Made by a program: the position numbers and the translations under genes. 64,000 nt of DNA, from the NCBI GenBank assembly GCA_964557005.1, contig CAZKYI010000002.1, forward strand, positions 129,526 to 193,525, in the 5' to 3' direction. The notes below the pieces were generated by a model. The model searched no databases. It had not been told where the DNA came from and worked only from the letters and a program-made list of their open reading frames with translations. This document shows, piece after piece, positions 43,377 to 45,548 of the stretch. Position 1 is the stretch's first letter; each line of letters starts with the position of its first letter. This DNA is from an uncultured Pseudomonadales bacterium (GTDB lineage Bacteria > Pseudomonadota > Gammaproteobacteria > Pseudomonadales > JBECKS01).

Positions 43377-43691
43377 CTATGGTTTTTCAGTATTGCTTGT
43401 GAGTGCTGCATGTTCAGCAAGCTCTGCATTTATAAAAGCAGAAATCATTGAGCGATAGACGGCCTCGACTACATCGGGATTTGCACCGCAGTCGTGAGCA
43501 AGCGTGCGAACTTTTGAAATGACCTGCTCGACCCTTTGTGGCGCTTTAACGTCATCGGTGGATTTCTTAAAGCGCGCTGCCTGCATGACGAAGCCACCGC
43601 GCTCAGCGAGTAAGGCTACGATTTTTCGATCAATTGTGTCGATGTTGGAACGAACTTCTTCAAGGGAATTGCAAGTGATTGTCTTGTTCAA
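43377..43691 (-). CDS. monofunctional AroQ-class chorismate mutase (PchB-like)
   Basis: LEEVRSNIDTIDRKIVALLAERGGFVMQAARFK is the AroQ helix-1 signature. The protein is 104 aa. Confidence 0.8.
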   Translation of the reverse strand: MNKTITCNSLEEVRSNIDTIDRKIVALLAERGGFVMQAARFKKSTDDVKAPQRVEQVISKVRTLAHDCGANPDVVEAVYRSMISAFINAELAEHAALTSNTEKP

Positions 43692-43703
43692 TGTTTACTC
43701 CTG

Positions 43704-43982
43704 TCAGGCGCTTTTCGCACCGAGTATTTGCAAAATGGCACTGCTACTTTTTCCTCTTATTTCAATGACTTTATGTTGAGACGTACTACCTGAAATGACT
43801 GAAAGTGCGCTTTCGTTTAATTGTAGTTCTTTTGCCAGCAGTTTGATGACAGCCTCATTCGCTTTTCCTTTTTCGGGTGGGGCAGATACACGTACCTTGA
43901 GAGAATCGCCAAGCCAACCACAAACAGAAGAGCGTGATGCCCCTGGCACAACTTTTATTTTCAGCTTTGTTAATTCTTCCAT
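43704..43982 (-). CDS. DUF167 (YggU) family protein
   Basis: LKIKVVPGASRSSV...LKVRVSAPPEKGKANEAVIKLLAKEL. I prefer the M14 start. Confidence 0.8.
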   Translation of the reverse strand: MEELTKLKIKVVPGASRSSVCGWLGDSLKVRVSAPPEKGKANEAVIKLLAKELQLNESALSVISGSTSQHKVIEIRGKSSSAILQILGAKSA

Positions 43983-44061
43983 TGGTTTGTGTGTTCTACT
44001 AACGCCTGAATTAAGCCGCATCGAGAAGCGACATCGAATTGAATGAATTATTATTTTTTGT

Positions 44062-44095
44062 TTCTAACGTTGTCCGCAACATGGACTAGTTATAA
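44062..44095 (-). other. short attC-like imperfect hairpin closing the parDE unit
   Basis: On the minus strand: TTATAAC-TAGTCC-ATGTTGC-GGACAAC-GTTAGAA. The outer boxes pair 6/7, the inner stem is 5 bp, and one base is bulged. The parE TAA stop lies inside the TTATAAC box. Confidence 0.35.
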
Positions 44096-44377
44096 GTCTC
44101 TTTCAATTTCTTTGCCATGCCATAGCCGCAAAATGATTATTTCCTCTCTGGCAATAAAATAACGAATGGTGTAACTGCCAATAAATAAATCCCGAATGAG
44201 TTCCGGTTGTGGTGCCTTTAAAACTTGCAAACCCATTTTGGGAAATACTTTGAGTTTATCTATGCCAAGGAGCAGCTCTCTCGACACTCTTTGTGCTGCA
44301 ACTGGATTTTTGACTTCTATAAATTCACGAAGCCGATTCAAATCATCAATGGCTTCTGGCGTATACCTTATTTTCAT
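44090..44377 (-). CDS. parE: type II toxin, RelE/ParE superfamily (ParE-like)
   Basis: MKIRYTPEAIDDLNRLREFI...GSYTIRYFIAREEIIILRLWHGKE. A 4-nt overlap with the upstream antitoxin gene. Confidence 0.85.
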   Translation of the reverse strand: MKIRYTPEAIDDLNRLREFIEVKNPVAAQRVSRELLLGIDKLKVFPKMGLQVLKAPQPELIRDLFIGSYTIRYFIAREEIIILRLWHGKEIERDL

Positions 44378-44640
44378 ACTGAAGGGGGAGGCAACTCCTT
44401 GTCAGTGCCCCAACTTTGAAGCCATTCCGTAACTTTGGACTCGTTGACCAATTTGCCTGATTTGGCAGATTCCAGCGCAGCCAGAGTATCGTTCCAACGG
44501 CTATCTTCCATCAGTTGCCTGGCAATAAACTCTTTAACTGCTTGATTTATAAGATAGTTTTTACTTCTATCGAGTCGTTGAGCAAGACTTTCGAGAGGAG
44601 CTTCAATATCTTTAGAAATTCTGAGGCTGGTAATGCTCAT
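44374..44640 (-). CDS. parD: ribbon-helix-helix (CopG/ParD-type) antitoxin
   Basis: MSITSLRISKDIEAPLESLAQRLDRSKNYLINQAVKEFI is an RHH fold. It is coupled to the toxin gene. Confidence 0.8.
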   Translation of the reverse strand: MSITSLRISKDIEAPLESLAQRLDRSKNYLINQAVKEFIARQLMEDSRWNDTLAALESAKSGKLVNESKVTEWLQSWGTDKELPPPSV

Positions 44641-44706
44641 AACATATCTCCTGTGTATTATGTTGTAACACAGCGTAATACATGAGGAGAAGGCAAGTCA
44701 AAAGAC

Positions 44707-44775
44707 TTATAACGCCCACAACACCGGCAAACCGGAGCGAAGCGGAGGTTTGTCCGGTGCTTGTGATTGTTACGT
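44707..44775 (-). other. attC-like 69-nt imperfect palindrome closing the GIY-YIG unit
   Basis: On the minus strand: ACGTAAC...GTTATAA. The arms at 44714-44733 and 44747-44768 pair extensively, with two single-base bulges (44753 and 44760) and a 13-nt loop. The ORF's TAA stop lies inside ACGTAAC. Confidence 0.45.
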
Positions 44776-45510
44776 GTTGACTGGTACAAATTCACGCTCT
44801 ATTAGGTCGATAATAGAAGCTACCGTTTCGGTGCTAATGCTCATTACCTTTGCGCCGCCCTTCTTTCCCTGCTCTACGTCGAAGCCGTGCCCCTCAAGGA
44901 ATTCTTTGATGTCTTCATAGACATCTCTACTCCTTCCGATAGACAGATGATGCCTGCCGGACTTCCTCGCATTTACATAATATGTAAGTTGCTTGTCATC
45001 ACTAAAAAATGTGGGTCCGGCAATGCGTGAGCTTGATCTCAGAGGCTTTGTTAGCAAATCGGAAATTTCACCAAGTAGTATATGGTCAGATTTCTGCTTA
45101 TTTTCAACTTCTTTTTGAAGGACGCTCTGGGTGTAGGGATCGTTGCTTTGCTCGATTGGTAATTCTCTAGCGCCGATAAGCCCCATAATGGGTTGCATGC
45201 GCTCCACGAGCGTATCGTCCTTATCTAAGAACCACTCTCCCTCAATGCGACTATCATCTAGCAGCATATGCAGCGCGTTTTCGACGGCTCTGGCATCGCT
45301 ATGTTCCCAAGCGGCAATGCACTGGGCTTTTATGGGTGATTTTGTATTGCTTATCTGTTGTAGCCGAGAACTGAGGGTTGCATTGCCCGCGCCCGTTACA
45401 CCCACCTTTTTGTATGGGATATCAACATTCCCACCAATGTCTATGTGACGCATTACGTAGATCATATTCTGCATTAGCTAAATTAACTCCAAATTCTCCG
45501 AGACACGTAA
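44713..45510 (-). mobile_element. candidate integron-type gene cassette carrying the GIY-YIG gene
   Basis: On the minus strand G|TTACGT (45511-45505) lies 36 nt before the ATG. The same 7-mer is complemented by ACGTAAC (44775-44769) at the ORF end. The unit is 798 bp. Confidence 0.4.
44770..45474 (-). CDS. GIY-YIG superfamily (T5orf172/MUG113-like) domain protein with an uncharacterised C-terminal half
   Basis: The N-terminal IYVMRH..YKKVGVTG..LSSRLQQI..ENALHMLLDDSRIEGEWF fits the T5orf172 pattern. The C-terminal ~120 aa are unrecognised. Confidence 0.65.
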   Translation of the reverse strand: MQNMIYVMRHIDIGGNVDIPYKKVGVTGAGNATLSSRLQQISNTKSPIKAQCIAAWEHSDARAVENALHMLLDDSRIEGEWFLDKDDTLVERMQPIMGLIGARELPIEQSNDPYTQSVLQKEVENKQKSDHILLGEISDLLTKPLRSSSRIAGPTFFSDDKQLTYYVNARKSGRHHLSIGRSRDVYEDIKEFLEGHGFDVEQGKKGGAKVMSISTETVASIIDLIEREFVPVNT

Positions 45511-45519
45511 CAGTTTATT

Positions 45520-45548
45520 AAGCGGCCATGGCCGCTTTATTTTTTTTC
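45520..45548 (+). terminator. orphan plus-strand rho-independent terminator with no plus-strand gene upstream
   Basis: Perfect 18-nt palindrome AAGCGGCCATGGCCGCTT followed by TATTTTTTTT. It sits 8 nt from the cassette boundary. Confidence 0.55.

Follow-up and report, generated by a model that had tools for sequence, protein, structure and literature searches.

A stranded integron gene cassette encoding a two-domain T5orf172 protein, a candidate for single-gene defence

Within the 64-kb window (the whole stretch of 64,000 nucleotides analysed here, from an uncultured Pseudomonadales bacterium) lies a genuine mobile integron gene cassette, whose anatomy and mobility are shown by its boundaries, its folded recombination site and its copies in other contexts (Table 1). 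Its only gene encodes a protein with an N-terminal domain of the GIY-YIG superfamily, a long helical connector and a C-terminal domain that is, by sequence, specific to its own family. We infer that the protein is a nuclease, that its C-terminal half binds DNA and that it serves in defence, and propose that the unit is a stranded mobile cassette for a modular DNA endonuclease which would most likely act against phages or mobile DNA, an explanation whose chances we put slightly below even. A single-gene anti-phage or anti-mobile-DNA function of this kind is plausible, and the competing explanations are weighed below with the evidence that bears on them.

Table 1. Features of the cassette and its immediate surroundings, in window coordinates
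Feature	Position	Strand	Basis
Integron gene cassette, complete, 798 bp	44713..45510	-	blastn block and boundary sequences
5' cassette junction G/TTACGT (slash, crossover)	45505..45511	-	Sequence and blastn; identity to L006/L007/L008 begins at 45510-45512
attC recombination site	44707..44775	-	Fold and sequence; common to L006-L008
Ribosome-binding site GGAG	45487..45490	-	Sequence read; 12 nt before the ATG
ORF, 234 aa plus stop, ATG start, TAA stop	44770..45474	-	ORF read; homologues; dN/dS about 0.03
N-terminal T5orf172/MUG113 (GIY-YIG superfamily) domain, residues 1-107	45154..45474	-	Pfam, conservation, model, BFVD
Connecting alpha-helix, long, residues 113-140	45055..45138	-	AlphaFold models
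C-terminal domain, residues 141-234	44773..45054	-	AlphaFold models, profile search, fold match
RelB-type antitoxin and ParE toxin, adjacent unit	44374-44640 and 44090-44377 (unit 44090..44640)	-	Pfam annotation of identical locus L005
Palindromic operator-like repeat upstream of RelB/ParE unit	44654-44682		Repeat scan
GC-rich perfect hairpin, then T-run	45520..45547	+	Fold -7.6 kcal/mol, z -3.8

That the gene sits alone in a cassette-like unit had been suggested from the sequence, and both the folding of its attC site and the recurrence of the unit elsewhere bear this out. The cassette extends from TTACGT, just past the G/TT crossover, as far as the G in the R' box belonging to its own attC. 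TTACGT matches the R'' box as its exact complement, which is what circularisation of a cassette would lead one to expect. The R'' box (ACGTAAC, 44775-44769) overlaps the TAA stop of the ORF and is separated from the R' box (GTTATAA, 44713-44707) by an imperfect L''/L' stem, so that the imperfect inverted repeats of an attC, in the order R''/L''/L'/R', directly follow the gene. The bottom strand of the site, which is the plus strand of the window, folds at -17.5 kcal/mol (z -3.4) with the R-box stem formed, leaving an unpaired central spacer of 2 nt on each side and two extrahelical bases, T44753 and C44760, 6 bp apart, both as in a cassette attC. By blastn, the 804-bp block 44708..45511 recurs at 99.6-100% identity in at least three further loci (L006, L007 and L008) between unrelated flanks, the copies differing by two or three synonymous changes only; with L005, the locus identical to the window's own, one unit with discrete G/TT boundaries is thus found in four different contexts, as is characteristic of a cassette. 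Homologues in Vibrio cholerae, V. metschnikovii and V. metoecus are flanked by VCR-type attC sites and have varying neighbours, and in V. metschnikovii a true IntI (TIGR02249, 493 bits) is encoded 3.8 kb upstream, so that there an integrase does adjoin the array, as it would in a complete integron. In the 64-kb window, a motif search by regular expression and phmmer found no tyrosine recombinase and hence no integron integrase, and we therefore regard the window copy as a stranded or CALIN-type cassette outside a complete integron. A promoter scan found nothing promoter-like in the 36-nt 5' leader of the cassette and no Pc in the window, and the length of the unit leaves no space for a partner gene.

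The cassette is held in a core chromosomal region with the local order TetR / cassette / RelB-ParE / ... / pstSCAB. Its toxin-antitoxin neighbour, likewise noticed beforehand, is identified by Pfam as RelB3_C and ParE_toxin. At the ParE stop, CTTATAAC is the reverse complement of GTTATAAG, the 5' boundary of the RelB/ParE unit; a second intact attC beyond this unit was nevertheless rejected, since the stretch 43995-44095 does not fold (z +1.0), though its R''-like box matches the 5' boundary. On the other side, the hairpin with its T-run sits immediately upstream of the cassette junction; lacking R'' and R' boxes, it was rejected as an attC and marks the non-integron DNA that holds the cassette.

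The ORF, the motifs IYVMRH, YKKVGVTG, RLQQI and EGEWF, and the C-terminal sequence quoted in the earlier note are all present, and near-identical proteins carry the NCBI label 'GIY-YIG nuclease family protein'. The proposed assignment of the N-terminal half to a T5orf172/MUG113-like domain is supported by both Pfam profiles, MUG113 (PF13455; residues 23-83, E 9.4e-9, 36.2 bits against a cutoff of 22.3) and T5orf172 (PF10544; residues 4-84, E 1.6e-6, 29 bits against a cutoff of 20), which are precomputed matches for nearly all homologues, and by BFVD structures of T5orf172, MUG113 and Bro-N proteins, which match some 100 residues at an rmsd of about 3 A. All 101 sequences compared share Tyr6, Tyr21, Arg37, Glu65, His69 and Glu80; in the AlphaFold model Y6 lies on strand 1, Y21 on strand 2, R37 in helix 1 and E80 on the GEWF strand. 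We mapped these as catalytic residues by motif order and predicted secondary structure, from which their correspondence to residues of I-TevI and of Odn, the origin-directed nuclease of Vibrio phage ICP1, is deduced; a mapping onto Odn by profile alignment was not significant and was set aside. In Odn, nuclease activity of a T5orf172 domain is proven by experiment, the E180A exchange abolishing cleavage (PMC8263062). Given this precedent and the Tyr/Tyr/Arg/Glu set invariant throughout the family, the domain of the cassette protein is likely to be catalytically competent, where the earlier note had called its catalytic status unclear and remarked that T5orf172 domains are often described as DNA-binding rather than nucleolytic.

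The same invariance weighs on the possibility that the protein is a domesticated, non-cleaving DNA-binding regulator, in which the T5orf172 scaffold and the C-terminal domain would repress or modulate transcription in the manner of PLE CapR. T5orf172 endonucleases have indeed been domesticated into repressors, as with CapR, which derives from a homing endonuclease (PMC8096241; PMC10448857), the very strong purifying selection on the family would be compatible with a conserved operator or partner, and a stand-alone nuclease without an immunity partner otherwise needs a reason for not being toxic. Yet Tyr6, Tyr21, Arg37 and Glu80 would usually drift once catalysis is lost, no obvious target offers itself for a cassette that moves among unrelated hosts and arrays, and the defence-island contexts of homologues fit such a regulator poorly, so that we consider it unlikely.

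T5orf172 and GIY-YIG enzymes typically combine their nuclease domain with one that binds DNA (PMC10448857). The C-terminal half, which the first reading could place in no family, is indeed family-specific by sequence and is placed by no sequence library: it matched no Pfam family, that of MotA included, in any of 22 members, found no real match in NCBIfam, and gave only noise in searches of PDB sequences with full-length and C-terminal profiles, while a profile search of 1.84 billion representatives returned only 23 proteins, nearly all of them built from these same two domains or fragments of such proteins. AlphaFold nevertheless models it with confidence (pLDDT 88, mostly >90), in the order four strands, helix, two strands, helix. 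Its conserved basic motif reads LTYYVxARKSGxHxLSIGRS; R146, R170 and K171 are invariant in 101 of 101 sequences, and H175 and R181 are conserved in at least 90% of these and invariant in a set of 29. The best, albeit weak, fold match in the PDB for residues 108-234 is the C-terminal domain of T4 MotA (1KAF, 5JLT; Foldseek E 0.006-0.016, prob 0.96-1.0, TM 0.41-0.55, rmsd 4.2-5.3 A, 12-15% identity). The C-terminal domain most likely binds nucleic acid and sets target specificity, with a fold that may distantly resemble the MotA 'double-wing'.

Two other views of this half were tried and rejected. Reading 'TYYV...SIGRS' as a second, degenerate GIY-YIG motif was prompted by an hhalign match to 'YLYV...KVGRS' of Odn that is not significant (Prob 0.7%), and aligning the two halves with each other by local hhalign gave a Prob of 0.2%. 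A VapD/Cas2-like ribonuclease module, which would turn the protein into an RNA-targeting toxin, is hinted at by a weak NCBIfam similarity of residues 181-229 to VapD (E 0.0044) and would suit a toxin-antitoxin neighbour; at 17.4 bits against a cutoff of 100 the match is noise, Pfam gives no VapD-type match for any member, the top Foldseek matches include neither a Cas2 nor a VapD structure, and the cassette contains no antitoxin, all of which makes this the most improbable of the explanations, with hardly any chance of being right.

What does the family tell us about the selective value of the gene? We collected 206 homologues (a family of about 200 proteins), in which both domains are always present. 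Selection on the family is strongly purifying (dN/dS about 0.03 for either half, dS >1.2), and the ORF is therefore more than a product of chance. Between lineages, protein identity is 91-92% with synonymous sites saturated; saturation in L009, L010, L027 and L029 led us to reject recent transfer as the cause of >90% identity across orders, and it fits the near-identical copies in L006-L008 only. At the same time the distribution is patchy, with 20 of 185,579 species representatives carrying the gene, and copies are disrupted at 5 of 20 genome loci, as expected of a dispensable, costly gene. Such extreme purifying selection on a mobile cassette is an unusual pairing, worth explaining even without a role in defence. 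GIY-YIG domains also serve in repair, as in UvrC and Slx1, and the constraint together with the conserved sequence could point to a highly conserved substrate, hence to a host-beneficial nuclease outside genetic conflict, acting structure-specifically in repair or recombination (UvrC or Slx1 type) or on hairpin DNA, for instance folded attC. Against this stand the patchiness and the decayed copies, the location on cassettes and genomic islands, and the lack of a conserved partner or operon, and we rate such a function as quite unlikely.

Searches of IMG/VR, INPHARED and PLSDB found no relatives in these phage and plasmid collections; we thus rejected a phage origin, and one of the findings that would have spoken against the earlier note, homologues residing mainly in prophages, was not made. 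The insertion contexts have no target gene in common, so that the hallmark of homing endonucleases, residence in a phage, intron or intein beside a cognate target, is not seen. This bears on a further possibility, namely a selfish nuclease of the homing or addiction type, which would cut a cassette-free chromosomal or array site and thereby favour the retention or spread of its cassette over protection of the host. Homing endonucleases of the GIY-YIG and T5orf172 kinds have this nuclease-linker-DNA-binding layout, the gene travels on a mobile unit through many contexts, and an addiction module adjoins it here; set against this, attC and IntI already account for the mobility of the cassette, the searches turned up no copy in a phage, intron or intein, a shared target is missing, and pseudogenised copies persist with no evident harm. 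We hold this possibility, too, to be an unlikely one.

Defence, the preferred reading, draws on the company that homologues keep. Those outside cassettes sit in defence islands, next to type IV Mrr (2e-58), PDC-S44 (6e-73), PDC-S53, Ppl and HEPN_AbiU2, and the identical cassette in L006 adjoins a LeoA-like GTPase and a type I R-M system. Altogether, defence genes flank copies in L034, L035-37, L006 and L029, a bare tally in which the neighbours of cassettes are arbitrary, so that the integron-array contexts say little about function. The PADLOC candidate PDC-S57 was matched by 29 of 29 members tested (best E 3.9e-11) in its N-terminal part only: residues 23-124 of the window protein align to profile positions 21-120 of 212, and the cassette protein is therefore not a member of that family. 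PDC systems are untested predictions, made from their embedding in known defence loci (10.1101/2024.09.26.614923), and no paper in the literature collection searched mentions PDC-S57. The defence candidacy proposed from the sequence is thus strengthened by the island neighbours, the consistent PDC-S57 matches and the lack of relatives in the phage and plasmid collections, and the disrupted copies speak for it as well, while the PDC-S57 match stays partial and the function is one we infer. The accompanying statement that integron cassettes are enriched in anti-phage systems agrees with the literature, as represented by Kieffer 2025, Darracq 2025 and Getz 2025, cited in 10.64898/2026.03.17.712381. 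The mobile-integron defence paper makes no mention of GIY-YIG, T5orf172 or MUG113, and none of the integron-defence papers examined lists the family among its systems.

How could such a defence enzyme operate? The T5orf172 domain, with its Tyr/Tyr/Arg/Glu set intact, would be the DNA-cutting module, joined by the rigid helical connector to the C-terminal domain, which, rich in invariant basic residues, would bind nucleic acid and direct targeting. As the cassette brings neither a partner methylase nor an antitoxin, the enzyme would have to recognise a non-host feature or stay inactive until triggered; the feature might lie in the sequence, the structure or a modification of the DNA that invades. 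Counting against defence, the constraint described above is unusually strong for an arms-race gene and could point instead to a conserved cellular or structural target. More speculatively, and in our estimate with little chance of being correct, the protein might work on its own as a restriction enzyme of a new type that depends on DNA modification or structure, its T5orf172 nuclease aimed by a MotA-like 'double-wing' domain. T4 uses this fold to read its own hypermodified DNA; an enzyme with a similar fold, stored and traded by integrons, might cut hypermodified phage DNA or some other non-self form of DNA, would have no need of a methylase, and its low dN/dS would follow from recognition of a chemical feature that does not vary, in contrast to a phage protein that evolves fast.

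Should a role in defence be confirmed, a very compact single-gene nuclease would join the growing set of defences borne by integrons, the PADLOC candidate PDC-S57 would gain a functional relative, and a new nucleic-acid-binding domain fused to T5orf172 would be defined. The cassette is also a convenient test case, offering base-exact boundaries, natural pseudogenes, near-identical copies in several contexts and, in Y6, Y21, R37 and E80, obvious positions for catalytic mutants.

Among characterized proteins, Odn (Gp88) is similar in size (about 230 aa) and in its two modules, a T5orf172 domain and a separate DNA-binding domain, the latter predicted in the cassette protein. In Odn, the DNA-binding domain sets target specificity, the catalytic Glu is required, and the enzyme acts in a conflict between genetic elements (PMC8263062). 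The order of the modules is reversed, however, Odn having an N-terminal DNA-binding RepA_N domain, to which the C-terminal domain of the cassette protein is unrelated, and a C-terminal nuclease; the two proteins give no significant sequence alignment, and Odn is encoded by a phage, whereas the phage collections searched contain no member of the cassette family. Similar in layout are the GIY-YIG homing endonucleases such as I-TevI, in which the catalytic domain comes first and a linker joins it to a DNA-binding part at the C-terminus, like 'beads on a string' (PMC10448857). Unlike them, the cassette gene lies in neither an intron nor a phage and moves by attC/IntI recombination instead of homing, and in place of the zinc finger and helix-turn-helix of the I-TevI type the model predicts a beta-rich, MotA-like fold. 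The C-terminal domain of MotA has three helices and six strands (PMC2988021), as does the modelled C-terminal half; MotA differs in being a transcription activator, not the partner of a nuclease, and in having no sequence-level relationship to the cassette protein. PDC-S57 resembles the cassette gene as a single-gene candidate matched in its N-terminal profile, and differs in the C-terminal part of the profile, which the cassette family leaves unmatched. Finally, the phage-defence cassettes of integrons (BRiCs of mobile integrons; the Vibrio SCI) are, like the present one, compact, single-gene and attC-bounded, from which the window copy differs in lying outside any complete integron. Integron cassettes have recently been shown to store defence systems (10.64898/2026.03.17.712381), and the cassette family, as defence cassettes do, occurs in marine gammaproteobacterial arrays, including the superintegron of V. 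cholerae.

The gene lies where the earlier note placed it, opens with ATG, encodes 234 residues and contains every motif quoted there; the base composition around it is unremarkable, and an Rfam search of the window gave no match. What had been called a cassette-like unit is a genuine mobile integron cassette, its anatomy canonical and its mobility directly shown by the presence of the same block in unrelated flanks. On the coding strand the stop codon is embedded in an ACGTAAC box, which is followed by an imperfect inverted repeat, CACAAGCACCGGACAAACC ... GGTTTGCCGGTGTTGTG, and then by GCGTTATAA. The bottom strand of this attC folds into the canonical shape (-17.5 kcal/mol, z = -3.4): the R-box stem and the L-box stem are separated by a central spacer of 2 unpaired nt, and the L-box stem carries two extrahelical bases 6 bp apart and ends in a small loop. 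At the 5' junction, the sequence TTACGT exactly complements the R'' box, as the opening of a circular cassette at G|TT would give. In a blastn search against contigs encoding the identical protein, the block recurs at 99.6-100% identity in four: the window locus itself (L005) and three others (L006, L007 and L008) with completely different flanks, L007 being an evident array of short same-strand ORFs with typical attC sites between them. Relative to the window, each of the three variant copies has 2-3 substitutions, all of them synonymous. In V. cholerae, a homologue (69% identity) is flanked on both sides by Vibrio cholerae repeats (VCRs) on chromosome 2, and its neighbours differ in four strains; VCR-flanked copies also occur in V. 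metoecus and in V. metschnikovii, where a true integron integrase (TIGR02249, 493 bits; cutoff 265) is found 3.8 kb upstream on the opposite strand. A simple attC detector, seeking AAC..GTT-closed hairpins directly after the homologue's stop codon, found them at loci L001-L008, L011, L012, L019, L021 and L029, and none at L010, L014-16, L020, L022, L027, L030-32 and L034-35.

The flanks of the window cassette are core chromosomal genes, the order being gmk, yicC, RNase PH, pyrE, ..., Rieske, TetR, cassette, RelB-ParE, DUF167, chorismate mutase and pstSCAB-phoU, with spoT, recG and uvrD further along the window. The SpoT of this gammaproteobacterium shows full identity only to its own 506-kb NCBI contig; it reaches at most 83% with metagenomic proteins and about 62% with those of Pseudomonas, Stutzerimonas and Ketobacter. 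No tyrosine recombinase is detectable within the 64 kb, and directly upstream of the cassette junction there is no attC, only a GC hairpin with a T-run. No plus-strand gene precedes this hairpin for termination; its role may be to shield the TetR gene from antisense transcripts, or the hairpin may be left over from the site at which the insertion originally took place. The toxin-antitoxin neighbour reported earlier is indeed present as RelB-ParE, which adjoins the cassette. Both of its proteins are singletons in their own 90% clusters (15 billion proteins), and the unit looks like a former cassette. From the missing recombinase, the missing upstream attC and the unfolded stretch downstream of ParE, we infer a short integrase-less cassette cluster with one intact and one decayed cassette; the alternative is insertion at a secondary site. 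The leader of the intact cassette is 36 nt long; it contains a GGAG ribosome-binding site and nothing that resembles a promoter.

Coordinates of the cassette, its surroundings and related loci (window positions unless a locus is named)
Feature	Location	Strand	Remark
ORF of the window protein	44770-45474	-	
Integron gene cassette	44713-45510	-	798 bp
TAA stop codon	44772-44770	-	
ACGTAAC	44775-44769	-	
5' junction, G|TTACGT	45511-45505		
Block shared by four contigs	44708-45511		
Stretch compared for dN/dS	44773-45474		
GC hairpin with T8 run	45520-45547	+	perfect 7-bp stem; terminator-like; 9 nt from cassette 5' junction
RelB/ParE unit	44090-44712	-	starts TTATAAG; CTTATAAC at ParE stop is the perfect reverse complement
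Palindromic operator-like repeat	44654-44682		ahead of relB
Region downstream of ParE	43995-44095		no attC fold, z +1.0
DUF167/PF1765-like gene and CM_2 chorismate mutase gene	43377-44021	-	both small; between toxin-antitoxin unit and pstS; may be core genes or further decayed cassettes
C-terminal motif LTYYVNARKSGRHHLSIGRS	44968-45000		residues 159-169
Identical cassette and following genes	L006:1614-7520		
L035 island features	L035:8696-9637, L035:16598-16699		likewise in L036, L037
Odn gene (ICP1 locus)	L038:7828-8508	-	
Disrupted copy, V. metoecus	L013		frameshift near residue 209
Disrupted copy, Planctomycetota MAG	L018		in-frame TAG at Gln40
Disrupted copy, Cellvibrio	L023		frameshift at residue 157
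Disrupted copy, Enterobacterales MAG	L024		truncated after residue 92
Disrupted copy, Gammaproteobacteria MAG	L028		heavy decay

The N-terminus had been described as T5orf172/MUG113-like, and Pfam matches above cutoff to MUG113 (residues 23-83, E 9.4e-9, 36.2 bits, cutoff 22.3) and T5orf172 (residues 4-84, E 1.6e-6, 29 bits, cutoff 20) assign the protein to that domain family; in PHROGs the same stretch matches function-unknown phage families only. The AlphaFold2 model (101 sequences, pLDDT 85.3) predicts strand 4-10 (Tyr6), strand 21-27 (Tyr21), helix 34-42 (Arg37), a strand, helix 61-71 (Glu65, His69), a short hairpin with Gly79-Glu80-Trp81 and then a helix, a predicted order of elements that is the GIY-YIG order. 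The residue positions named are invariant in the 101 sequences, and structural matches in BFVD are T5orf172, MUG113, Bro-N and 'GIY-YIG nuclease' proteins (~100 residues, rmsd ~3 A). The earlier note had left catalysis in doubt. As T5orf172 is a nucleolytic GIY-YIG subfamily, in which the ICP1 nuclease Odn cleaves PLE origins and loses cleavage with E180A (PMC8263062), this doubt is largely settled toward a probably active nuclease; the mapping of individual catalytic residues stays putative, since direct profile alignment to Odn is not significant.

In T5orf172 enzymes the nuclease is generally accompanied by a separate DNA-binding domain at the opposite terminus (PMC10448857). The C-terminal half of the window protein falls, as had been claimed, in no assignable family: it has no match among PDB sequences and none in Pfam (0 for 22 family members), and a VapD-like reading scored far below cutoff (17.4 bits against 100). 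Its profile matched only 23 of 1.84 billion representative proteins, nearly all of them full-length two-domain relatives (232-261 aa) or fragments thereof, the only other forms being a 1077-aa repeat protein and a 177-aa protein; by these searches the domain is therefore essentially private to the two-domain architecture. A 28-residue helix (113-140) is predicted to link it to the nuclease domain. Modelled alone (AlphaFold2, pLDDT 88.1), the C-terminal half is confident, with a predicted order of four strands, helix, two strands, helix. Three basic residues, R146, R170 and K171, do not vary, and H175 and R181 are nearly invariant. Of a conserved LTYY motif, L163, T164 and Y166 are invariant and Y165 is at least 90% conserved. 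The top PDB fold match in both searches is the C-terminal DNA-binding 'double-wing' domain of phage T4 MotA (1KAF, 5JLT), a weak match (E 0.006-0.016, prob 0.96-1.0, TM 0.41-0.55, 12-15% identity) to a domain likewise built of three helices and six strands (PMC2988021). The modelled fold points to a probable nucleic-acid-binding, specificity-determining module. The motif containing LTYY bears a superficial resemblance to Odn's GIY-YIG hairpin, YLYVINFKKDGCIKVGRS; hhalign gave no support for homology to Odn (Prob 0.7%) or between the two halves of the protein (Prob 0.2%).

At E <= 1e-3 the window protein has 206 matches, the best 120 of which are nearly all 225-238 aa (extremes 212-356) and 61-100% identical over 82-100% of the query, most covering at least 95%. 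The family occurs in 20 of 185,579 species (one genome per species), mostly marine Gammaproteobacteria, with single MAGs of Planctomycetota, Anaerolineales, Spirochaetales and Akkermansiaceae; named sources among the 90% cluster members are Colwellia, Halomonas, Alteromonas, Marichromatium, Porticoccaceae and Pseudohongiellaceae. No relatives were found in IMG/VR, among 50,697 phage genomes or among 72,556 plasmids. An island with a homologue in a Pseudomonadales MAG (L035; likewise L036 and L037) also encodes a second, longer T5orf172/MUG113 protein (395 aa) and an Apyc1-like metallo-beta-lactamase-fold protein. Against two loci whose proteins are 91-92% identical (L009, L010), the window gene has a dS of 1.2-2.3, near saturation, and a dN/dS of 0.02-0.03 in each half; the proteins have therefore stayed so alike under very strong purifying selection on both domains, and not through recent transfer alone. 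Constraint this tight is unusual in an accessory gene carried on a cassette, and none of the explanations considered here accounts for it. Five of the 20 genome loci carry disrupted copies, and strong constraint together with frequent loss fits the pattern of a costly accessory gene.

The protein is a candidate for nuclease-type defence in an integron cassette. Every tested member matches the PADLOC phage-defence candidate PDC-S57 (best E 3.9e-11), in the shared N-terminal region only; PDCs are 'guilt-by-embedding' predictions (10.1101/2024.09.26.614923). Non-cassette copies lie in integrase-bearing islands crowded with defence genes: L034 holds HEPN_AbiU2, a PLD nuclease, full-length PDC-S53 and Ppl (7e-85), while the L035-37 island holds PDC-S44 (6e-73) and an Mrr type IV gene (2e-58) convergent with the homologue, with a 4-bp overlap. 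Close to the Gilvimarinus copy is a gene for an Mrr_cat-TPR protein. In L006 the nucleotide-identical cassette is directly followed by a LeoA-like GTPase (PADLOC LeoA, 3e-11) and a complete type I R-M system (hsdR, hsdM, hsdS), which may together form a giant cassette or may mark the array's end. The storage of defence systems in integron cassettes is documented (10.64898/2026.03.17.712381). Neighbours inside an integron array are uninformative on function, and the very low dN/dS, atypical for arms-race proteins, counts against defence.

In the mechanism we propose, the T5orf172 part would cut, and the C-terminal domain would bind nucleic acid and set specificity. As the cassette brings neither methylase nor antitoxin, the enzyme would have to discriminate non-self DNA or stay inactive until triggered. 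The finding is real, its boundaries are sharp, and it makes a good candidate for experiment. That an integron cassette should carry a candidate for nuclease-type defence is by now an expected pattern; new here is the fusion of a known nuclease domain to a C-terminal domain that is uncatalogued and private to the family, spread as a cassette. By its context the protein is not a homing endonuclease, and with only a partial match it is not a member of PDC-S57; nor is it VapD-like. It would work in the manner of the modular GIY-YIG nucleases, Odn and the I-TevI-type enzymes.
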